Of a DNA stretch of 64,000 nt, positions 26,488 through 61,848 are shown in pieces; the first letter of the stretch is position 1; every line of letters starts with the position of its first letter. The stretch is from an uncultured Phycisphaerales bacterium (GTDB lineage: Bacteria > Planctomycetota > Phycisphaerae > Tepidisphaerales > Tepidisphaeraceae): positions 864,001 through 928,000 of the forward strand of contig CAVWLP010000002.1 in NCBI GenBank assembly GCA_963755915.1, written 5' to 3'. The position numbers and the translations under genes were made by a program. A model generated the notes under the pieces. The model searched no databases. It was not told the DNA's origin and was given only the letters and a program-made list of their open reading frames with translations.

Positions 26488-28262
26488 ATGTATCTGAAAA
26501 GACGGTGGGACATTGAAGAAGGGCGCGAGGGGGCGGAAGAGCTGGCGCGGGGGCTGAGAGTTTCGCCGATTATTGGGAGAATGCTTTTGAACCGGGGGAT
26601 AACGTCGGTGGAGGCGGCGCAGGGGTTTTTGAAGCCTTCGCTGCTGGGGCTGGAGGAGCCGGGGAAATTGCCGGGGCTTAATTGCGCGGCGGAGCGGATT
26701 GCGCGGGCGGTGAGGGATGGGGAGAAGATTGTTATCTACGGGGATTATGATGTGGATGGGATTACGGCCACCAGCATTTTGTGGCATGCGATCGTGCTGC
26801 TGGGGGGGAAAGTTTCCACGTATATTCCGCACCGGATCGATGAGGGGTATGGGCTGAACTCGGAGGCGATTGGGCAGATTTGTGCGGATGGGGCGAAGGT
26901 GATTGTGACGGTGGATTGCGGGATCACGGCGGTGGAGCCGGCGCGGGTGGCGAGGGAGCGCGGGGTGGATTTGATTATTACGGATCATCATGATTTTCAT
27001 GGGGATCCGCCGGTGTTGCCGGAGTGCTTTGGGATTGTGCATCCGAGGCTTTTGGGGGAGTGGGAGGCGTATCCGAATCCATATTTGTGCGGGGCGGGGG
27101 TGGCGCTGAAGTTGGCTTGGGGGATCGGGCAGAAGGCGGGAGGGGCGGCGAGAGTGAGTGAATCGTTTCGAGGGTTTCTCGTCGAGGCGACGGCATTGGC
27201 GGCGCTGGGGACGATTGCGGATGTGGTGCCGCTGGTGGGGGAGAATCGGCTGCTGGCGCATTTTGGGCTTAGCGGGTTGCGGCAGAGCAAGCTTTCGGGG
27301 ATTCGGGCGCTGATTGAATCGGCGTCGCTGGGGGGAAAAATCTGGATACGTATGATGTAGGGTTTTTGCTGGCGCCGCGGCTGAATGCGTGCGGGAGGCT
27401 GGGGCATGCGGCGCTGGCGGTGGAGATGATGACGACGGCGAGTGAAGCGCGAGCGAAGGAGATTGCGGTCTACCTGGAGGGGCAGAATCGGGAGAGGCAG
27501 GCCGTTGAGAAAAAGATTCTCGAGCAGGCGCTGGGGCAGATTGAGAGCAATGGGTGGGGGAAGGATGACCGGGCGCTGGTGCTGGCGGCGGAGGGGTGGC
27601 ATGCGGGAGTGATCGGGATTGTGGCGTCGCGGATCGTGGAACGGTTTTGCCGGCCTACGGTGATGGTGGCGCTGAACAATGGCGTGGGGCAGGGGAGCGG
27701 GAGGTCGATCTCCGGGTTTCATCTGGCGAAAGCACTCGAGGCTTGCGGGGGGCATTTGCTGGCGTGTGGGGGGCATGAGATGGCGGCGGGGTTGAAGATG
27801 GAGACGGCGAAACTGGAGGAATTTCGGGCGGCGTTTTGTGAGGTGGCGCGGGGGGTGGTGAGCGAGGAGATGCTGCTGCCGAGGCTGAGGATCGAGTGTG
27901 GGGCGGAGTTGACGGAGATCACGGAGGGGCTGGTGAATGATATGAAGAGACTGGGGCCGTTTGGGCATGGAAATCGGAGGCCGGTGATTTGTGTGGAGGG
28001 GATTACAGTGGCGGCGGAGCCTCGAAGAGTCGGGAAGACGGGGGAGCATTTGCAGATTCAGGTGAAGGGGGAGAAGGGGGTGATGAAGTGTATTGCGTTT
28101 GGGGCAGCAGCGATTGTGGATCGGCTCAAAGCGGGGACGGAGGTGAGGCTGGCGGCGGAGCCGGAGATCAATGAGTTTAATGGGAGGAGGAGTGTGGAGT
28201 TGAATGTGAGGGATGTGGAGATTGTTGGGAATGCCGAATGCCGAATGCCAAATGCCGAATGA
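26488..28262 (+). CDS. recJ: ssDNA exonuclease RecJ (frameshift near 27340)
   Basis: YGDYDVDG, EGYGL, TVDCG, TDHH, LGTIADVVPL, APRLNACGRL, GSGRS, GGHEMAAG. Confidence 0.93.
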
Positions 28263-28315
28263 AAGACGAAATGCCGGCGTTTTATATTTCATTCGGCATT
28301 TGGCATTCGGCATTT
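28230..28315. repeat. (AATGCCG)n heptamer palindrome overlapping the recJ stop codon
   Basis: aatgccgaatgccaaatgccgaatgaaa ... tttcattcggcatttggcattcggcatt; about 28-bp perfect IR with a short spacer. Confidence 0.85.
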
Positions 28316-46350: not shown

Positions 46351-47655
46351 TTAGTGCACCAGTTCGATCTGGTACTGGGTGATGGTGGCCTGGTATCCGC
46401 CCTGGTTGTTGCTCCACTCGTGGCCGTCCATGGTGCCGAGGAAGAGGGTGGTGGCGTTGGCGGGGACGATGATGGTCTGGGCGACGCCTTGGGAGTTCTG
46501 GCCGCTGCCGACGTAGAAGGTCTGGCGGAGCTCGGGGTCGAAGGTGGTGTAGTCGCGGGAGTTGGAGGTGCTGAAGTCCACGCCCTTCGGGACGGTTCCC
46601 TGGTCGTCGGGAACGGCGCCGTTGTTGGTGTCGAGGAAGACGCCGACGACGGAATTGATGGGGGTTGCGATGTTGGAGATGCCGTGCTCAGAGCCGCTGG
46701 TGGTGACGGTGCCCTGGGCGAGGTTGGGGTTGGCAGCGTCGTCGCTGTAGATGGCGTAGGTACCGTTGTCGGAACCGTCGGCATTGTAGGTGATGGAACC
46801 ACCGGTGAGGTATCCGGAATTGGTGGCCATGTCGCTGGAATCCTGGGGGATGCTCACCTGGATGACGGAGCCCGGGGTAACGGTGAGGTTGAAGGCGGCG
46901 GGAGATTCATCCGGTTCGCCCGCGCTGTAGTCGGTGGATTCGATCTTGGTGGAATTCGTGGGGGCGACATAGTTGCCGTCCGTGCCGGCTTCGTCGTCGG
47001 CGGTGGCGACGGCGGCGGGATTGGCAATGTCATATTTCCAGGGGTGCGTGTCGTTGGCCGAGGGCTTGTCGTATCCGGTGTCGGGCACTGAGCCGAGCGT
47101 CCCTTTGGGCTCGCCCGCCAGCCAGGGGTTGCCGTGGGCGGAGACGTAGATGTGCTGGGGGGCCTGGACGGAGACCAGAGCCGCGACGGAAGTGGCATTA
47201 ACGTCGCAGGAGTTGGCGCCGATGAGAGCGCCGAACATGAGAGGGATGGGATTTCCATTGGCCTTGGTGCGACGCCCGATGACCTGCACCGCGAGAAACG
47301 TGTTCACGTAGTCGGGCGAACCGTTTTGGCTGAACGTCTGAGTTTGTTTGTTCCAGATGCCAAGGGAGACGTCCAGGGGATTGATGGTGAGATAGGTGGT
47401 GTCGACCTTGTTTTTTCCGCCCATGGCGACGGCCGCGTTCTGGACGGCGCTGAGGCCCTGCGGAGCATAAGCCGCGGCGGCGCGAGCGGCGGCGTCGCAA
47501 GCGCGGCGAATTTCGGTCTTGGCGGTCTGCACGCGACCCAGATCGACGGCCAGCGAGCAGAAGGCCAGCATGACCGTCAGGGCGGCACAGATGTAAATCA
47601 GTACGACACCGCGGCGTCGGCAGTAGGAGCGGCCGGTTGTGAGTGGGCTTCTCAT
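46351..47655 (-). CDS. TadG/Tad-like pilus-associated protein, copy 1
   Basis: RRRGVVLIY..TM..SLAVDLGR...DAAARAA; IPLMFGALIG; C-terminal LFLGTMDGHEWSNNQG. Confidence 0.8.
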   Translation of the reverse strand: MRSPLTTGRSYCRRRGVVLIYICAALTVMLAFCSLAVDLGRVQTAKTEIRRACDAAARAAAAYAPQGLSAVQNAAVAMGGKNKVDTTYLTINPLDVSLGIWNKQTQTFSQNGSPDYVNTFLAVQVIGRRTKANGNPIPLMFGALIGANSCDVNATSVAALVSVQAPQHIYVSAHGNPWLAGEPKGTLGSVPDTGYDKPSANDTHPWKYDIANPAAVATADDEAGTDGNYVAPTNSTKIESTDYSAGEPDESPAAFNLTVTPGSVIQVSIPQDSSDMATNSGYLTGGSITYNADGSDNGTYAIYSDDAANPNLAQGTVTTSGSEHGISNIATPINSVVGVFLDTNNGAVPDDQGTVPKGVDFSTSNSRDYTTFDPELRQTFYVGSGQNSQGVAQTIIVPANATTLFLGTMDGHEWSNNQGGYQATITQYQIELVH

Positions 47656-47835
47656 GTGCGGAGTATGCCACGCGTTTGGAAATGAGCGCGGGAAAGTCAA
47701 TCATTTTCCGGGGCATCCGGAAGCGGCGCGAGTCCGGGCGTGAGGGCGGTGAGGTTTAGAGCGGGAGGATCGGGAGCAGGGAGGGGGTTATGGGGCGTGA
47801 GCAACGCTGCTTGTTGGAAGCGCGCAACGAAAATG

Positions 47836-47893: not shown

Positions 47894-49202
47894 TCAGTGA
47901 ACGATTTCGACATTGAAACTCGTGATGGTGGCGTTGAAGCCGCCCTGGTTGTTGCTCCATTCGTGGCCGTCCATGGTGCCGAGGAACAGCTCGTAGGCGT
48001 TGTTGGGCACCACGATGGTCTGCTGCACGCCCGAGGAGGTTTGGCCCGTGCCGACGTAGAAACTCTGGTTGAGCTGGGGTTCGAGTGTGGTGTAGTCGCG
48101 TTCGGTTTGGGTGCTAAAGTTCAGGCCGGTGGGGACGGTTTCACCGGAAGTGTTGTCGGCGCCGGCGGAAGACGAGGCCTGGTCAAGGAAGACGCCGTTG
48201 AGGGAGTTCAAGGGTGTCTCGATATTGGAGATACCGTGCTCGGAGCCGCTGGTGGTGTCGGTGCCCTGGGCGTCGGTGGGGTTGGCGGCGTCGTCGCTAA
48301 AGATGGCGGTGGAGCCGTCGTCGTTGCCGTTGGCCTCGGTGTCGATTCCGCTGCCGGTGTTGTCGAGCAGACCCATGTTGGAGGCGGTGCTGCCGGTACC
48401 GGACGTGGGGACGGAGATCTGGATGACCGAGCCGGGCGAGACGGCATAGGCGACCGGGGAGCCGTAAGGTTCACCAGTGGAATAGTCGGTGGATTCGACT
48501 TTTTTGGAGTCGGTGGGGGGAGTGTAGCTGCCGCTCGAGCCTGCGGAAGCGACGGCGCTGGCGACGGCGGCGGGATTGGCGATGTCGTATTTCCAGGGGT
48601 GGTCGTTGTTGGAGGGCTGGTAGGAGTCATCGGGCTCGCTGCCGAGGGTTCCTTTGGGCTCTCCCGCGAGCCAGAGGTCTCCGTGCGCGGAGACGTAATC
48701 CGTAAGCGGCGCACTCGTGGAAATCAGCGCGGCGACGGAAGTCGCGTCGACGTTGCACGTGTTGGCGCCCAGGATCTGCCCGAAGAGCAGGGGAATCGGA
48801 TTCCCGTTGGCGGCGGTGCGCAGACAGGTGATCTGCACGGCGTTGTAGGTGTTGGTGTTGTTGGCGGTGCCGCTGGTGCTGAACGTGTTGGTGCTGGTGT
48901 TCCAGATTCCGACCTGCACGTTGGAGGCAGTGATCGTGACGGCGGAGCCGTCGCACTTATTCTGTGCAGCGATGGCAATGGCGGCGTTCTGCACCGCCGT
49001 GGTCCCCAGCGGAATGTTCGCGGCCCCCGCGCGCAGCGGCGTCGGCGGCGCGGCGCAGCTCGGTCTTGGCCGTCTGCACGCGGCCAAGGTCGACCGCGAA
49101 AGAGCAGAAACCCAGCATCGCGACCAGCGCGACGATGATGTAAATAAACGCCATACCGCTACGGCGTGAACGAACCCGTGCCTTATTCATAGAGAACCTC
49201 AT
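47894..49202 (-). CDS. TadG/Tad-like pilus-associated protein, copy 2 (frameshift near 49025)
   Basis: RRSGMAFIY..FAVDLGRVQTAKTELRRAADAAAR joins ORF 47894-49087; paralog of copy 1. Confidence 0.8.
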
Positions 49203-49372
49203 GGCGTTGATATCGAATTGAATCGGCCGGGATGAGACCAGGGTTCATTCATTTTTCAGCCGGAAAATCGACCGACGGTGTGGAGCTGGTGGAACCCTGG
49301 GGATTGTGAGGGCTGGGCTGAGACGTTATCGGGCGTGCGGATATTTGTTCTTTGCGGAACCCGCCGAGCGGG

Positions 49373-54467: not shown

Positions 54468-54555
54468 TGGGGAGATTGTCTGCGGTTTTTGGGGGTTTGT
54501 CATGGGGCGGGGGAGCGCTCCCCTTCTGGTCGCGGCCAAACTAAAATGTAGGGGA

Positions 54556-55225
54556 ATGTCGGATGCATGGATTTTGGCGTGCTTCGTGCCAGCGGCCTAT
54601 TTGATCGGTTCGGTCCCCTTCGGCCTGCTCGTCGGCAAGGCCAAAGGAATCGATCCCCGCAAGGCAGGCAGCGGCAATATTGGCGCAACCAACGTCGGCA
54701 GACTCCTCGGCGGAAAATATTTCTGGCTCGTCTTCAGCCTCGACATGCTCAAAGGCGCACTCCCCGCTTTGGCAGCAGGAACAGTAATTGGCTATCGCAT
54801 CACTGATTGGGTGACCTGCCTCCTGTGGATGGCCGTCGCCGCCGCCGCGGTGCTGGGGCATATGTGCAGCCTCTTCCTGAAATTCAAAGGCGGCAAGGGC
54901 GTCGCCACCAGCGCGGGCATGATGATCGGCATCTTCCCCTTTTACACCCTGGCCCTGATCCCCGGCGCGATCGTCTTTGTGATCGCCTTCCTTTTGACCA
55001 AATACATCAGCGTAGGCTCGATCTCGGCGGCGTTTGCGTTTGCCGTTGGGTATATCATCATCGGATTGATCGAGCACTGGCCAATCACCGGCGCCCAGCT
55101 TCCCCTGCTCTGTTTTGCCCTGGCGCTGCCGGCACTGATCATCTATAAGCACCGCGGCAACATCGCCCGCCTGCGCCGGAACGGAGCCGCGATTTGCGGC
55201 AAAGGCATCATGCGAATCAAAGTGA
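54556..55225 (+). CDS. plsY: Glycerol-3-phosphate acyltransferase PlsY
   Basis: YLIGSVPFG, GSGNIGATNVGR, DMLKG, GH...FKGGKGVATSAG, HRGNIARL; GTEPRF end lies in a shifted frame. Confidence 0.9.
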
Positions 55226-55407
55226 ACGGACAGGATTTTGAGGCTGCCGAGGGGGCGGATATTCATGCGCTGCTGAAGGCGCATAACCTGACGGCGGACA
55301 AGGTGGCCGTGGAGGTTAATCGGCGGCTGGTGAGGGGGGATAAGTATGATACGAAATTGAAGGGCGGGGATGAGGTGGAGATTGTGACGTTTGTGGGAGG
55401 GGGATAA
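55210..55407 (+). CDS. thiS: Sulfur carrier protein ThiS
   Basis: MRIKVNG...VAVEVN...GDEVEIVTFVGGG (C-terminal GG). Confidence 0.92.
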   Translation: MRIKVNGQDFEAAEGADIHALLKAHNLTADKVAVEVNRRLVRGDKYDTKLKGGDEVEIVTFVGGG

Positions 55408-55447
55408 ACGGCAAAAGCCAAATGCCGAATCTTGCTAAATTGGTCGA

Positions 55448-56164
55448 TCAGATTTTCGATTCAGCAAGGCTTGGCTCGCCTACGACAAATTCCGGATCGA
55501 GCAGAGTCAAGTCACGTTGAAATCTGTTCTTAAGGGATCTTTGAAATTCTCGACATCTTTCAACGTCATTTCGATCGAAAAGAGATTTTCCTCGATTCTT
55601 GGCGATTGTCTCAACAGACCTCTGGTCGAGCAGCTCCAATGCGGCGTTGAGCACACGGTCAATTTTGGTCACGCGGTCTCGCACGGTCTTAGACGGCATC
55701 CCTGGTGCCACTCCCCAGAACTGCCCCGCTTCTCGGAAATACTTTGGCTTGGATGGGTCGGACAGCCATGCTTTAAAAACAGGATGCTCCAATATCCCCG
55801 ATAGAAGCGATTCAAGTTCGCGGTCAGCCTTCTCGCGAGTGACTCCATCGCCCGGTTTAAGCTGCGAAGCCTCGTGAAGTCCTGCGGCGGCGAGCCGATA
55901 AATCATTGGCCTAACCCGCTCTATCAGGCCCTGCCCAACGAGGCCGATAGAACCACGCCGATTGAGTTCCTTATTAATCTTTTCGGCGTCCGGAAACTCG
56001 TTTTCGAATTTTCGCAGGCCCCATGCCGCTTTGTCTTGGCGCCAAGCTTCCACGAGCAGATCTTCCGCGGAAAAGGTTTTTCCCAGGTCGCCTCCCGTTA
56101 GGCGTAAAGCCGCGAGAAGAGCCTGATCACGTAAACCTAAGCCCTTGACATCAACGTCTGGCAT
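55448..56164 (-). CDS. Hypothetical protein, N-terminal winged-helix-like domain
   Basis: FSAEDLLVEAW...WGL...PD...GLIERVRPMIYRLAAAG resembles a wHTH with wing; third gene of the island operon. Confidence 0.6.
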   Translation of the reverse strand: MPDVDVKGLGLRDQALLAALRLTGGDLGKTFSAEDLLVEAWRQDKAAWGLRKFENEFPDAEKINKELNRRGSIGLVGQGLIERVRPMIYRLAAAGLHEASQLKPGDGVTREKADRELESLLSGILEHPVFKAWLSDPSKPKYFREAGQFWGVAPGMPSKTVRDRVTKIDRVLNAALELLDQRSVETIAKNRGKSLFDRNDVERCREFQRSLKNRFQRDLTLLDPEFVVGEPSLAESKI

Positions 56165-56187
56165 ATCATTACCTAGCGTACGAACTT

Positions 56188-58534
56188 CTACGTTAACTCC
56201 TGTCCACTCGTGATGTAGGACTGAAGCTTTTCCCACATGGGCTGCATGAGAGACACCTGAAAGTTTTCGAGTGTGCGTTTATGGTTCGCCCAATATTCTA
56301 GCTTCTCATTCTCGCCCTTTCTGGTGAATTCTTCCATCATGTGCACCTGAGCTACCATCTCGATGAGCTTTTGAACGTGAAATGAGCGCCAACGAAGTAA
56401 ATCTTCATGGCGCGACTTGAAAAAATAAGAAGCTTCTGGGCTTCCCAAGTTCAACCACCAAATATTGGCCAACTCGTCACAAACCTCTTGCCAGAGTGTT
56501 GGCTGATCCGGGTTTGACGGACGAATTTTCCCAGTATCGGGATCGACGTCCTTGTCGGTGATGAGCAGTCGTGGAAATCCTCCGCCTCGCTGCCTCTCTT
56601 TCGGGTTAGGGATCACCGCGACTTCTGCTCGAATACGAGCCCAAATTCCGCCATTAGCCTCTTCCCCCGCGCCTGCGCTAATGGACGTGCGCCCGATCCG
56701 ATTCCCCGTGACTTGCCCCCACGGGGAAACTCTTACTATCAGCTGATCGGGGGCATCGTGTGCCCAGTTCAATAGAACATTCGTCGCGCGGTTGCCCTCA
56801 TCGTTCGTCACCTGAGCCGTAATCGGTTTGCGATTGCCAAGTGGGATTTCGAGCGTTCTTGGTGTTAGAAGTACGTGATCAACCAACCACACTTCGATTT
56901 CAACGCGAGGAGATTCGATCTTCTGGCCCTTCACGCGGCACCAGATATGGCATCCGCCTTTGCGCGACGCCGTCATTCGGTCACCCGAGTTGAACTCGAC
57001 GACGTGCCGATCGCTGGAGAACCACTCCAGGTCAACGTGGGGGACAGTCTTGCCGTCTCGGTCGCAGACACGGCTGCCCAGGATGCCGGACATCCCCGAC
57101 GTAACGCCGGCGCCGATTCTAAGTGGCTGCGCAGCGTCCCAACTAATAAACTCGATCGACTCAGGCGTTTCTCCGTAATCCCGCGCCGGGGGTGTAGGCC
57201 GGAAGATAGGCCCCTTGCCATCACCAGAGCCTGTCCCGTCGCCGCCCGGCCCCGCGCTTTCAAGAAATTGGTTCTTAAACCGGTCCAACGCGGCGTTCTC
57301 TCGCTGAACCTCATCCAACGTGTGATCGTCGAGTTCTTGGCGACGGTGTTCATTGATCTCTTTGGCCAGTTCTTTGATACAGTCGCAAATGAAGCGGTCT
57401 ACCGCCGAGACGAGAGGTCCGTCGTTAGGCGCACGCGCCCAAGAGCGACGTAGTCCGGCTCAAACGCGCCGAGCTCAACAACGCCGTAAATGAAATCAGA
57501 ACCGGGTATACCAGACGCGAAATCGGAAACTGGCTTTGAACCAATGATGTGATTATGGTTAGCTTTGTAAGTGACCTTCCATCGCGGCTTCAAATTCTTA
57601 TGAGCTGTGCGCATGTTCTGGCGTGAAGTGTAAAGCACGAGCCGCCCGCGACTCCGAGCGCCATTAAGCGTCGTGGACTGATCCACGCCGGCCTCGTCCT
57701 TTAACAGTTCGGGGATCTCATACGCCGGGCGAGTTCGAAGCCGGGATACGGCTCGATAGGCTCAAGCTGTAGTGGTTTACCTTCATTTAGAATCGTGCCA
57801 TTCCGGACAGCGAAGAGCCGAAATTGCTCAATAGCAGCCGTCGCTTGGTCATGCCGCAAGAGTTTCGTCGTGAGGTCTACTGGAATGCGGCCTTTGAAGA
57901 AATCTTTTGGATCTAGTCCTTCCACCAACGTGAAAGCTTGCCGCTTTTCTATCGCATCGGTCACCGCGTGAGGCAACTCCTCAGGCTGAATGTCGTACAC
58001 CTTTAGAGCCTCGCTCAATTCCGATCGCCACGACGCTACTGGCAAATCGCGTGCAGCGGCATCGCTCGGGATGAAGCCTGGGCAACCGCGTTCCAGCGAT
58101 TGAGGCGGTCCCTCAAAACCCTTGCAATTCAGTTTTCCGTCACGGATGCCGAGGATACGAGCGCGACCGTTGAAGAGCTTGTACATGTAGGCCTTGGCGC
58201 CGTTACCCTGGGTTTGTTCTTCCGGAAGCGAGGACCCGCGGCCAGAGGCCGTAAAATCTTGCCAAACGCTCCACCTAGTAACGTCTTCGAGCGTAGCGCC
58301 ACCAACGTCCAAAACACCCAATGCGGCCGGGCCTTCGTATTCGGCATCCTTCATTAGCAACACCGCAACGCGCAATTCTTCCGGAACGCTGGCGCGGTCG
58401 GATTGATAGGCGCGTCTTACATTTTTCAGCCATTCGGCGAGCCCCTCAGCGTGAGTGCTGATCCATCTTGTGAGTGAGCGAAGTGTCCCGAGTTCGTGAA
58501 ACTCGATGCCGTTCTCATCGCGTTCAATGCTCAT
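56188..58534 (-). CDS. GHKL/MORC-like ATPase with C-terminal Ig-like domains (about 780 aa; frameshifts near 57730 and 57428)
   Basis: GLAEWLKN (N-box), VLDVGG (G1-like), QGNGAKAY (G2-like); three ORFs join as FE..YEIPELLKDE and GRVRPNDGPLVSAVDRF; LEWFSSDRHVV and VSPWGQVTGNRIGRTSISA resemble Big_2 Ig-like domains. Confidence 0.65.
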
Positions 58535-58551
58535 AAATCCCACCTATATAA

Positions 58552-59169
58552 CTATTCCCCATTGGGCTGAGCCGGTAAACGTTCCCAGCGTGCTTGAACC
58601 TCTGCTCGCCACTCGGATGTTCCGGGAATCGAGTAGCCTTGACGCCCGTGTTGCTCCACTAGACCGCACTCGCGTAACCAGTTCAGGCAGAGATATGGCT
58701 GATAGGACGGAATTTCGCTGCCATCGCCCGTCGTCAGAGGCAAAACATCGTTCATCGAAAACTGCCTGCTTTTGCGGCTCGCTTTAACCAATGCCTCCAC
58801 CAGCGAGAATAACACTGCCTTGGGAGCCTTGTGCTCGTATTCCCCCTCTGATTTGGAATAGCCAACCTTAATCAGCCAGTCTTCTCGCCCATAAAATTTA
58901 GGGTACTCAGATCTTCGACCCCTCTTTCGCTTGAATGTTGCCGCGTCGGCTGCGCTAGGTTGGCCCTGCCCAGCCGCAACGCCCACCCCAATCTCTTGTG
59001 CGTGCCCTCCGATCGCCCTAGACCATTTGTCCGACAGAGCTCCAATCGCTCGCGCGATGTCCAAGACAGTGGCGGCGCGGTCATAGTTTCTCGACGAGGC
59101 ATATTCTCCGGACAGCTTCGCGAGCGATTCCTCAGCACCTACTAAGATTTCGTGAACCTTCTGATCCAT
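58552..59169 (-). CDS. Hypothetical protein, basic linker + C-terminal wHTH-like domain
   Basis: KRKRGRRSEYPKF...LIKVGYSK...YEHKAP...PSYQPYLCLNWLRECGLVEQHGRQGY; first gene of the island operon. Confidence 0.65.
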   Translation of the reverse strand: MDQKVHEILVGAEESLAKLSGEYASSRNYDRAATVLDIARAIGALSDKWSRAIGGHAQEIGVGVAAGQGQPSAADAATFKRKRGRRSEYPKFYGREDWLIKVGYSKSEGEYEHKAPKAVLFSLVEALVKASRKSRQFSMNDVLPLTTGDGSEIPSYQPYLCLNWLRECGLVEQHGRQGYSIPGTSEWRAEVQARWERLPAQPNGE

Positions 59170-59413
59170 ACAGGGAAGAATAATACAACGAAAATACTAA
59201 TTGTCAAATAAAAAATACAGATAAAATACAGGCAAAATGCTCTTTGGGGCCGTCGCGGCCTCGAAACGAACAGTTTGGCCAGCGGCCATCTCTTCAACTG
59301 TTCGCCAATTTTGGCCCATGCCCCTATTTTGTTCGAGAGTGTCACTTTTTGTAACCTTTTGTCACCTCGTTTCGGCATTTGGCCTTCGGCCTTCGCCGTT
59401 CTAAAATCCCCCC

Positions 59414-60232
59414 ATGCACCCCCTCCGCATCGGCAAATTCGAACTCTCCAGCCGCCTGTTCGTCGGAACGGGCAAATACGCTTCGTACGAGATCATGCAG
59501 GAAGCCCTGGCCGCCAGCGGCTGCCAGGTGGTGACCGTCGCTGTGCGGCGGGAACGGCTGATCGATAAACAGGGGCGGTTGATCCTGGATTTCCTGGACC
59601 TGAGCAAATATGTCATTCTGCCGAACACGGCGGGTTGCTTCAGCGCGGAGGATGCGATCAGGGTGGCGCTGCTGGGGAGGGAACTGCTCGAGAAGCAAAA
59701 GAATCCGGGGGCGAACTGGGTGAAGCTAGAAGTGCTGGGGGATAAGAAGACGCTGTTGCCGGATCCGATGGGATCGCTCGAGGCGACCAAGGAGCTGGTA
59801 AAGGAAGGGTTCACGGTGTTGTGCTACAGCAGCGACGATCCGATCGCGGCCCGGCGGATCAAAGAAGCCGGTGCGGCGAGCGTAATGCCGGCGGGAAGCC
59901 CGATCGGGTCGGGGCAGGGCGTTTTGAATCCGCTGAATATTTCGCTTTGCCTGGAGACGCTGAAGGAGGGGGATAAGAATTATCCGGTGATTGTGGATGC
60001 GGGAGTGGGGACCGCGAGCGATGTGGCCGTGGCGATGGAGTTGGGAGCCGACGGTGTGCTGCTGAATACGGGGGTGGCGCACGCCAAGGATCCGGTGAAG
60101 ATGGCCGGCGCCATGAAGCTGGCGATCGAAGCGGGGAGATTGGCGTTTGAATCGGGGCGAATCGCCAAAAAGCGGTACGCGACGGCGAGCAGCCCGTTTG
60201 ATGGAGTGATCAGCTATATTCCAGGCGAGTGA
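59414..60232 (+). CDS. thiG: Thiazole synthase
   Basis: [48 protein letters not shown]. Confidence 0.96.
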
Positions 60233-61131: not shown

Positions 61132-61848
61132 ATGCTCGTGCTGACCCGCCAGCGAGATCAGATCATCATGATTGGGGATGACGTGGAGATTACCGTGGTT
61201 GATATCCGCGGCGACAAAGTGCGGCTGGGGATCACCGCGCCGATGAGTGTGAAGGTTTATCGGCGTGAGGTTTACGATCAGATTCGCGAGGAGAACCGGG
61301 CCGCGGCGCAGATGGTTCCGGCGGATCTGGTGAACATTCCAGCCACGCCCCCCCCGCCGGCGCCGGTGGCGATCGAGCCGCAGCGGGCGACGTTTCCGCG
61401 ACTGGCGGCCGAGAGCCGCGACCCGTTCATGCAGGCGGCGATTGATGAAGCCTTACTGGGCCTCAGCGAGGGAGGATTGCCGATCGGGTCGGTGCTGGCG
61501 CGCGGAAATCAGATTATCGGGCGCGGACACAATCGCCGCGTGCAGCGCGGGGATCCGATGGCCCATGCGGAGATCGATTGCCTGACGAATGCCGGGCGGC
61601 AGAAGACATATGCGGACACGGTGCTCTATTCGACGCTGATGCCCTGTTTTCTGTGCAGTGGAGCAGTCGTGCAGTTTGGCGTGCCGAGGGTGGTCGTGGG
61701 AGAGAGCGTAAATTTTGGAGGCGGGCCGGAGCTGATGCGCTCGAAGGGAATTGAAGTCGTGGATTTGCACGATCGGGATTGCATTGAAATGATGGGGCAA
61801 TTCATCCGGCAGCATCCGGAGCTTTGGAATGAGGATATCGGGAAGTAA
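61132..61848 (+). CDS. csrA: CsrA (carbon storage regulator) fused to a Zn-dependent cytosine/nucleoside deaminase
   Basis: aa 1-55 MLVLTR...IGDDVEITVVDIRGDKVRLGITAP..V.VYRRE; Pro/Ala linker; DPFMQAAIDEA...PIGSVL...GHNRR...HAE...PCFLC...WNEDIG. Confidence 0.88.
   Translation: MLVLTRQRDQIIMIGDDVEITVVDIRGDKVRLGITAPMSVKVYRREVYDQIREENRAAAQMVPADLVNIPATPPPPAPVAIEPQRATFPRLAAESRDPFMQAAIDEALLGLSEGGLPIGSVLARGNQIIGRGHNRRVQRGDPMAHAEIDCLTNAGRQKTYADTVLYSTLMPCFLCSGAVVQFGVPRVVVGESVNFGGGPELMRSKGIEVVDLHDRDCIEMMGQFIRQHPELWNEDIGK

Follow-up and report, generated by a model that had tools for sequence, protein, structure and literature searches.

The spacer between thiS and thiG in the genome of an uncultured Phycisphaerales bacterium contains a cassette of three genes, which is the subject of this analysis. 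The window, i.e. the whole stretch of DNA that was analysed, has a length of 64,000 nt (assembly GCA_963755915.1, contig CAVWLP010000002.1, positions 864,001–928,000 of the forward strand). Its list of open reading frames (ORFs) revealed that the spacer is occupied by three minus-strand genes, termed A, B, and C. At the left flank ThiS is encoded by the last 65 codons of the plus-strand ORF 54502–55407, and at the right flank ThiG is encoded at 59414–60232. Gene A (58552–59169, minus strand) is an ORF of 205 amino acids (aa) with a helical N-terminal part, a basic linker, and a conserved C-terminal domain (YPKF...IPSYQ.YL...GRQGY; alignment A3). Gene B (56188–58534, minus strand) has about 782 codons when it is read through and is present in the assembly as three minus-strand ORFs in three frames (57701–58543, 57399–57686, and 56188–57318). 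Gene C (55448–56164, minus strand) encodes 238 aa. The alignments with homologues suggest that the true starts are ATG 58534 for gene B (MSIERDE...) and ATG 56164 for gene C; the ORF of the latter is open from 56236, and its homologues begin near residue 25 of the ORF (alignment A2).

With these starts the intergenic gaps are about 17 nt between A and B and about 23 nt between B and C. The island (55430–59370) has a GC content of 53.9%, compared to 60.3% for the remaining window, and is below all 262 windows of equal size elsewhere, the minimum of which is 56.5%. An earlier note on this DNA had described three tightly spaced minus-strand genes of more AT-rich composition between thiS and thiG, and the ORF layout and the composition both agree with that description. 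A putative sigma-70-like promoter (TTGACA-16-TATTAT, 11/12; 59180–59207, minus strand) is located in the AT-rich leader that precedes gene A; it was identified by agreement with the consensus only, and 3 sites of this type were found versus 2.4 expected from shuffled sequences.

The frameshifts in gene B were located by comparison of the three frames with the intact homologues P0001, P0004, and P0007 (783, 781, and 783 aa). Both breaks turned out to be a single missing base in a homopolymer run. Frameshift 1 is at 57723–57730 (minus strand; coding strand GCCCGGCG), where the CCC or the GG run is one base short, and the window reads GFELAR|PAYEIPELL compared to GFExxxVxEIP in the homologues. 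Frameshift 2 is at 57428–57429 (minus strand), where the coding strand has CC; a CCC would restore ...GRVRPNDGPLV... and would give GRVRPNDGPLVSAVDRF, which matches the homologues. The read-through gene is in the range of the homologues (770–800 aa), and the two single-base frameshifts and the joined protein of about 780 aa of the earlier note were thus confirmed. The three pieces contain no in-frame stops or other lesions, and they have retained 13 of the 13 residues that are invariant in the family.

Logan contigs from four soil-metagenome runs (X1–X4) of one study were compared with the region. A contig of X2 (587 nt, 57081–57666) had a sole difference from the window, an extra G behind 57427 (plus strand), which restores the frame at frameshift 2. 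Frameshift 1 was covered by only one contig (X1, 57625–57840, depth 3), which has the same sequence as the window. This agreement is not independent, because X1, the run that covers the region best, may be the source sample of the genome. The runs X3 and X4 gave partial coverage of the island and spanned neither frameshift site.

The quality of the assembly is also informative. The genome consists of 3 contigs with a completeness of 81%. In G006 and G007, two genomes of the genus with few contigs and low completeness, thiG is split into two frames (L048 and L047), which is consistent with indel errors of few-contig assemblies. Comparison of the window with the ORFs of three many-contig relatives uncovered one further split gene, a Tad-like gene (Tad_C; 47894–49244, minus strand), in which the frame changes at a G5 run close to 49040; an intact paralogue adjoins it at 46351–47700. 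Here the assembly has probably made a further homopolymer error. Taken together, at least one of the two breaks in gene B is an assembly error, and the assembly context favours artefactual frameshifts. The window illustrates that homopolymer errors in a long-read-type assembly can imitate gene decay.

Neither gene B nor its C-terminal piece had a match in the 40 relatives that were searched (completeness 59–100%), and the own genome contains a single copy of gene B. The genes plsY, thiS, and thiG are adjacent in 7 of 9 loci of the same genus, as had been anticipated for thiS and thiG; the other two loci start at a contig end or have no thiS nearby. The stretches spanning the thiS–thiG spacer, with a few flanking bases at each side, have lengths of 43–266 nt in 7 relatives of the same genus. 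DNA homology to the closest relative, G001, stops at 55403 and resumes at 59414. We infer that the 3.9-kb cassette was acquired horizontally, as the earlier note had proposed, because gene B was not seen in the 40 relatives, the spacer is short in the 7 relatives of the genus, the GC content is low, and the tree of B crosses phyla (see below).

The insert is bordered by the two arms of a split palindrome that is composed of heptamer repeats and resembles a repetitive extragenic palindrome (REP). The left arm (55407–55429) follows directly after the thiS stop codon and marks the left edge of the insert, and the right arm (59371–59393) ends 20 nt before the thiG start and marks the right edge. 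The arms form a 23-nt inverted repeat (I1) that is 83% complementary and contains a perfect core of 13 nt. This 13-mer has 51 copies in the genome, compared to 0 for the reversed control, and the copies often occur as inverted pairs 30–50 nt apart. In the relative G004 both arms are intact as one hairpin with the same heptamer repeats, within a stretch of 119 nt at the same spacer. Judged from these sequence comparisons, the cassette occupies the loop of a REP-like hairpin. The cassette itself does not contain a recombinase. No consistent flanking inverted repeats were found across 19 other loci, and therefore the hairpin is the target of this insertion and not a part of the cassette. A REP-like hairpin would thus be the landing site of an insert without a recombinase.

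Further observations were made at this spacer, which is a variable spot in the genus. In G001 (L040) it has 255 nt and no palindrome, and a short ORF of about 58 codons was seen by eye. Variants with other heptamers (GAAACTC) are found at the same spacer in relatives. The REP-like elements of the heptamers AATGCCG/AATGCCA form long palindromes, and the sites in the window are 28233–28304, 29466, 46187, 55417, and 59371.

The structure of gene B was analysed with an AlphaFold2 model of the homologue P0001 (22 aligned homologues, mean pLDDT 76.1). The model predicts an alpha/beta module of the GHKL+S5 ATPase type (residues ~16–366, the module as a whole ~1–400), a long helix of 50 residues (375–426), a Gly/Lys-rich linker of low confidence (428–453), two beta-sandwich domains (Big_2 Ig-like; ~460–645), and a mostly helical C-terminal domain (655–783). 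The domain order that had been proposed for the joined protein, including the two Ig-like domains, was thus borne out by the model. Foldseek matched the N-terminal part to MORC2 (E 1.1e-8, 425 columns), MORC4, MORC3, and TRAP1, overall with E 1e-8 to 1e-6 and about 410–480 columns. The Foldseek and VIA-align matches of this part fall on model residues 1–402. With VIA-align, the top match was MORC3 (5ix2_A; Z 14.0, root mean square deviation (rmsd) 5.2, 293 aligned residues, model residues 20–401 versus chain residues 21–391). Further Z values were 13.4 for MORC4, 13.0 for Hsp90, 12.9 for MORC2, 12.4 for SMCHD1, 12.0 for MutL, and 11.5 for TopoVI-B. The matches of the predicted structure to Bergerat folds had Z values of 11–14 over 270–330 aligned residues. 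The S5 fold of the second domain is indicated by alignments that run through model residues ~20–402 and cover both domains of MORC3 and the N and M domains of Hsp90. According to the model, the N-terminal module is a very divergent GHKL+S5 (GHL) ATPase, in agreement with the GHKL/MORC-like fold of the earlier note. The Z values of MORC, Hsp90, SMCHD1, MutL, and TopoVI-B all lie within about 1–2.5 units and do not single out one subfamily of the GHL ATPases.

GHKL ATPases are defined by an N box, a G1 box, and a G2 box. The conservation of gene B was quantified over 44 diverse members down to 18% identity. The residues G31, E34, K37, N38, Y43, D76, G79, G110, G112, K114, P276, P656, and N697 are invariant in 44/44 members. 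The motifs AEWLKN, DVGG, and GNGAK, which had been noticed before, are present and sit on these invariant columns: E34 and N38 (AEWLKN, present in the window) conform to the E-x-x-x-N of motif I, the N box, D76 and G79 (LDVGG) belong to motif II, and G110, G112, and K114 (GNGAK/GNGGK) belong to motif III. The spacing of the glycine box departs from the textbook DxGxG. R368, at a place where the basic residue of the S5 domain is expected, is kept in 43 of 44 members and may contact ATP. A Pfam HATPase match was not obtained for the window pieces (E ≤1), three close homologues (E ≤1), or 20 distant homologues (E ≤0.1). The B family is thus too divergent for all curated ATPase profiles tried, and yet the ATP site is strictly conserved.

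The remaining domains of gene B were compared with known families as well. Against the Big_2 profile (PF02368; gathering score 22.8 bits), the window piece scored 15.6 bits and thus below the gathering score, whereas P0095 scored 33.1 bits and 6 of 20 distant members scored 23.2–46.4 bits. Foldseek matched the Ig domains to the tandem Ig domains of LigA (E 1e-11), S-layer proteins, and the tail protein of phage SU10. As to the C-terminal domain, a profile search of the PDB matched only the Ig region (teneurin-like protein, Nup210, E ~3e-6), and an Atlas feature search with residues 646–783 returned only unnamed clusters. The C-terminal domain keeps few polar positions and is therefore unlike a nuclease active site. 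Searches of PADLOC and NCBIfam did not yield a meaningful match for gene B; the PADLOC matches to GajB, Cmr7, and Cas12f (E 0.002–0.06, 35–58 residues) were rejected as too short and too weak. The Pfam scans of the window pieces and the homologues, together with the PADLOC and NCBIfam searches, are in congruence with the earlier note, which had seen neither a methylase nor a recognisable nuclease in the cassette and had found no named system to match it.

The two partner genes behaved differently. Gene C was found downstream of gene B in 26 of 26 loci that include the 3′ end of B. On a plasmid of Ensifer the 3′ end of a distant B homologue overlaps by 4 nt with the gene for a protein of 229 aa that matches the C profile (hhalign 98.7%, E 2.9e-16). 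The model of gene C (pLDDT 79.4) contains a winged-helix domain (residues ~30–130) and a conserved helical second half. The top match of the winged helix was 1tbx_B (Z 9.4, rmsd 2.6, 79 aligned residues), and MarR, PadR, the winged-helix domain (WHD) of Scc1 (8.6), and MukF were found at Z values of 8–9. In total about 50 winged-helix chains match the model (Z 7.6–9.4, rmsd 1.6–3.6, 64–90 aligned residues). Foldseek gave weak matches to MukF and MukE of the MukBEF condensin (E 0.007–0.05) and no PDB match at E ≤0.001. A Pfam family match was not obtained for gene C, its second half had no clear match, and an Atlas search returned only unnamed clusters, probably the own family of C. The mean column identity in alignment A2 is 54% over the whole length, including the half outside the helix-turn-helix (HTH) region. 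On the basis of its model, gene C is a winged-helix protein, and DNA binding is putative.

The genes upstream of gene B were counted in 34 loci that include the 5′ end of B. A protein with a coiled coil and a HARE-HTH-like domain was encoded in 10/34 loci, an A-like gene was present in 7/34 loci, and a VapBC pair in another 7/34; one copy each of the HARE-HTH-like and the A-like genes is displaced by an insertion sequence (IS). The HARE-HTH-like genes had Pfam scores of 19.8–24.0 bits in 4 of 5 tested cases, all under the cut-off of 25.9, and one tested VapBC pair scored 72.5 bits for PIN and 52 bits for a MazE-type antitoxin. The remaining 10/34 loci have none of the three, and they include one DndB-type protein and one TacA-like fragment. 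In the tree of B, the A-type and the HARE-type genes follow two main clades (100/98 support), and VapBC occurs in both. By this census of gene order, at least three modules can replace each other upstream of B, and gene A is one of them. The DndB (DGQHR) protein is encoded directly upstream of B in an actinobacterial locus (L033:3107–4351), and an Acidiferrales locus has the fragment of a TacA-like antitoxin at the same place (L017:5694–5885).

The gene A family comprises 33 proteins in a large database, none of which has a Pfam domain, and gene A itself had no match in Pfam (E ≤1), PADLOC, or NCBIfam. Two candidate assignments of gene A were rejected. For a HARE-HTH protein (PF05066) there was no Pfam match, and hhalign of alignment A3 against A4, the HARE-HTH-like set, gave 0.03%. 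For a relative of gene C the hhalign probability was only 1.8%. Of the two winged-helix partners that the earlier note had proposed, gene C was therefore supported by its model and gene A was not, and the expected co-occurrence of the trio held for the pair of B and C but did not extend to A.

The B family is large. The C-terminal piece of B retrieved 193 proteins of 659–2000 aa; the best 120 of these 193 have 666–845 aa and 45–63% identity and are all named hypothetical. With the N-terminal piece, 234 representative clusters were found at E ≤0.001 and 131 at E ≤1e-10 in a library of 1.84 billion, and their full-length members mostly have 745–850 aa. A scan of species-representative genomes yielded 36 B loci. 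According to the record titles, the family is present in Planctomycetota, Acidobacteriota, Verrucomicrobiota, Pseudomonadota, Actinomycetota, and Eremiobacterota, and the source names of the homologues add Chloroflexi and Phycisphaerae. In a tree of 20 full-length B proteins, well-supported clades mix phyla; one example unites Sulfuricaulis, Thermoanaerobaculia, and Chthoniobacterales (support 95/96). B and C are thus a unit of two genes that moves among at least six phyla and the front ends of which can be exchanged.

A distant homologue of B (24% identity, 95% of the query) was found on the conjugative Ensifer adhaerens plasmid NZ_CP118613.1 (L067, 52580–68823). This copy is preceded by a helical protein of 75 aa without a Pfam match. 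Its surroundings also encode LigD, an SOS-response-associated peptidase, an AAA ATPase that has a hypothetical partner, and, at a distance of about 4 kb upstream, a DNA methyltransferase. Among 50,697 phage records no tblastn match was obtained, and a scan of viral contigs, performed with two peptide patterns only, did not uncover a confirmed relative of B.

Truncated, internally deleted, or IS-interrupted copies of B were found in L018, L025, L029, L035, L036, and L038. Decayed copies are located at L038:6001–6513, L036:6001–6309, L029:6001–6894, and L035:6001–7113, and their forms include one deletion fusion of B(1–60) and C(141–250), B stubs of about 104 and about 299 residues, and an internally deleted B without C.

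The neighbourhood of the cassettes was characterized with 134 ORFs flanking 26 loci. By Pfam these are mainly unrelated housekeeping genes that differ from locus to locus. Transposases, integrases, and serine recombinases were found occasionally, as were one HEPN_AbiU2 protein and one pair of AAA_21 and TCAD9. A helicase, a nuclease-methylase set, a TIR domain, or a restriction endonuclease (RE)-fold domain was not found in B or among the 134 flanking ORFs, and the cassette as a whole had no helicase match either; an ordinary methyltransferase is encoded about 3 kb away in one locus. PADLOC matched 8 of the 134 ORFs, and two of these matches were defence-like (a Ppl-like ATPase in L011 and PDC-S70 in L014). 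The enrichment of homologues in defence islands that the earlier note had suggested as a check was therefore not observed. In summary, the cassette behaves as a self-contained mobile unit that is not visibly tied to defence islands.

We propose that the cassette is a mobile, nuclease-free, ATP-gated, and DNA-directed conflict module with B and C as its core pair, a proposal to which we assign an about even chance of being right. ATP-driven dimerisation of the heads is established for the GHL ATPases MutL, Hsp90, topoisomerase VI, and MORC. By analogy, the heads of B would dimerise on ATP binding, and a second contact, probably through the long helix or through the C-terminal domain, would keep the protein together, which would result in an ATP-gated clamp. 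Gene C, together with A or the HARE-HTH-like protein where these are present, would supply DNA recognition or regulation, possibly in contact with B. Because the pair is not accompanied by a nuclease, helicase, or methylase, B and C would bind, entrap, or compact DNA or recruit host factors. The target would be foreign or mobile DNA in conflict. The distribution would be explained most economically by such a putative role in conflict with foreign DNA. A more specific version would regard B and C as a nuclease-free bacterial counterpart of eukaryotic MORC/SMCHD1 silencing, with an ATP-gated ring, Ig-domain arms, a kleisin/KITE-like winged-helix partner for closing or loading the ring, swappable readers (A, HARE-HTH) for the recognition of invading or mobile DNA, and topological entrapment or compaction in place of cutting; this version is speculative and we regard it as unlikely.

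Several results weigh against the conflict module. At the level of function the proposal is built on comparison and models. The MORC matches are tied with those of Hsp90 within 1 Z unit, leaving room for a protein rather than DNA as the substrate. Without a HATPase profile match in 24 members, the ATPase assignment rests on the predicted structure and the motifs. The C-terminal domain of B retains only N697, P656, and a few other positions, and effector domains were not recognised. With only 2 defence-type neighbours among 134 mostly housekeeping ORFs, defence islands lend the proposal no support by association. Finally, gene B contains two breaks in 2.3 kb, compared to roughly one break per 16–20 kb elsewhere in the window, and frameshift 1 recurs in the X1 contig; the local copy of gene B may thus be genuinely damaged.

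The last point leads to the alternative that the local cassette is a decaying relic, in which at least one of the frameshifts is real and B is a pseudogene. The density of breaks (two in 2.3 kb versus one other in about 22 kb of syntenic genes), the identity of the X1 contig and the window at frameshift 1, and the frequency of truncated, deleted, and IS-interrupted copies in the family all argue for decay. However, each break amounts to one base lost from a homopolymer run, a homopolymer frameshift is also present in the conserved Tad-like gene, and the three pieces are otherwise free of lesions and have kept the 13 invariant residues. Furthermore, the X2 contig restores the frame at frameshift 2 without any other difference over 587 nt, and X1 may be the source sample. 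The decay that the earlier note had considered is thus contradicted by an independent contig at frameshift 2, and frameshift 1 was reproduced in a contig that is possibly not independent. We consider a relic to be a minority possibility, improbable but of some weight.

Alternatively, B and C could serve to maintain or organise mobile DNA, or they could act as a factor of the nucleoid or of silencing; as an ATP-gated clamp, with winged-helix proteins as adaptors, they would compact, partition, or silence the carrier DNA and would not serve defence. The GHL clamp fold is common to the chromatin compactors MORC2 and SMCHD1, and the weak similarities of gene C to MukF and MukE and to the WHD of Scc1 point in the same direction. 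The absence of a nuclease, the copy on a conjugative plasmid, and the lack of a defence-island context would also be in agreement with such a role. However, most copies are chromosomal and located among housekeeping genes without a surrounding element, and the B family was not found in the phage collections that were searched. In addition, the similarity of gene C to MukF, MukE, and Scc1 is no better than that to dozens of ordinary winged-helix regulators. A maintenance role is therefore judged to be unlikely.

A third possibility is that B is an Hsp90-like protein clamp, the Ig domains of which bind a protein ligand, e.g. a phage structural protein, while C is merely the regulator of the operon. 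Chains of the Hsp90 family reach Z values of 12–13, and Hsp90 uses an arginine at the position of the basic residue of the S5 domain, which fits the region in which R368 is located. Big_2 is moreover a typical binder of proteins or glycans in phage and surface proteins, as seen in the Foldseek matches to the SU10 tail, LigA, and S-layer proteins. Nevertheless, gene C is conserved as strongly as gene B, and the conservation extends over its full length including the non-HTH half, which is beyond the need of a simple repressor; the alternative upstream genes are DNA-binding types (HARE-HTH-like, and DndB in L033). A protein clamp thus appears quite improbable.

The conflict module was also compared with described systems that contain GHKL+S5 ATPases. 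Prokaryotic MORCs are described as patchy and laterally transferred, with a superfamily II (SFII) helicase in about 70% of the neighbourhoods in addition to restriction-modification (RM) components (PMC2292703). The B family shares with the MORC proteins (MORC2/3/4, SMCHD1), as characterized in that description, the GHKL+S5 module followed by a coiled-coil-type helix, the intact ATP motifs, and the sporadic lateral distribution, and they are its best structural matches. Unlike MORC, it has no HATPase profile match and no S5 signature, it lacks the CW and hinge domains, and genes for an SFII helicase, a nuclease, or a methylase are not linked to it. The motif GhXhhpXXRhl, which is reported for the S5 domain of the MORC family (PMC2292703), was found in 0 of 44 B members when it was searched as a literal pattern, and since it is a consensus, a degenerate form could escape this search. 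Beyond the features of MORC, the B family has an obligate winged-helix partner as well as two Big_2 domains and a new C-terminal domain.

The families paraMORC1–5 are described in operons with genes for helicases, methylases, Vsr, and RE-fold nucleases, and as having C-terminal domains with an RE fold (paraMORC3), TIR (paraMORC4), or HxH (paraMORC5) (PMC2292703). Their divergent GHKL+S5 module, family-specific C-terminal extensions, mobility, and proposed conflict role resemble the B family, which is set apart from that description by the lack of an RE-fold or TIR Pfam match in B and of an RM-type neighbourhood. That B belongs to these RM-like MORC/paraMORC systems (Iyer et al. 2008), with the other components encoded elsewhere, is in line with the shared GHKL+S5 module and the sporadic lateral distribution (PMC2292703), but it is very improbable in view of the missing S5 motif, the lack of an SFII helicase, a methylase-nuclease set, TIR, or an RE fold among the 134 ORFs of 26 loci, and the methyltransferases of one locus and of the Ensifer plasmid, which are not a conserved association.

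Two further systems were included in the comparison. Tiamat (TmtA) is described with a DUF3684 core of TPR-like and metalloprotease-like folds and a C-terminal PD-(D/E)xK nuclease (bioRxiv 10.64898/2026.09.30.754977); according to this preprint, a GHL ATPase in a stand-alone or small anti-phage system and swappable accessory parts are common ground with the cassette. The four proteins P0001, P0004, P0135, and P0203 matched none of the Tiamat features (DUF3684, the nuclease, and the TmtA model of PADLOC). VcSduA of Shedu type I-D is reported to have an N-terminal GHKL ATPase, a predicted entwined dimer, and a clamp-like middle domain and to act in phage defence (PMC12137116). Unlike VcSduA, which by this account contains a DUF4263 PD-(D/E)xK nuclease, B lacks DUF4263 and has a separate partner gene: no DUF4263 Pfam match was obtained in 24 family sequences, and no Shedu match with PADLOC. 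A description of a GHKL-Big_2 protein with a winged-helix partner was not found in the literature, although the family lists in the supplement of the Tiamat preprint may contain one. Taken together, the B family lacks those defining features of MORC, Tiamat, and Shedu that were tested, and it matches no named system.

Conflicts of genomes with foreign DNA repeatedly involve GHKL+S5 ATPases, e.g. the MORCs of plants and animals, SMCHD1, prokaryotic MORC/paraMORC, Tiamat, and GHKL-Shedu. In bacteria, the systems that have been described include a nuclease, a helicase, or a methylase, and the B family comes with none of these. If the conflict module indeed protects against phages or plasmids, it would be a GHL clamp that acts without cutting DNA and would offer a simple bacterial model for MORC-type mechanisms. 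If instead it has another role, such as maintaining or silencing its carrier, this would likewise be a new role for GHL ATPases in bacteria.

Two fused ORFs were observed in the vicinity of the cassette. PlsY (G3P_acyltransf, residues 31–224) and ThiS (residues 239–301) share the single open frame 54502–55407 (plus strand) without an intervening stop codon. In relatives the coding matches of plsY and thiS are 36 nt apart, which is likewise a multiple of three, and the single frame may represent a real fusion, a read-through, or a stop codon that was lost in the assembly. The ORF 61132–61848 (plus strand) contains a complete CsrA domain (residues 1–53) and a deaminase domain of the cytidine/deoxycytidylate type (residues 96–227; dCMP_cyt_deam_1, MafB19-deam). 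This fusion seems to be conserved in the genus, because ORFs of G003 and G004 span 61132–61848 from end to end in one frame.

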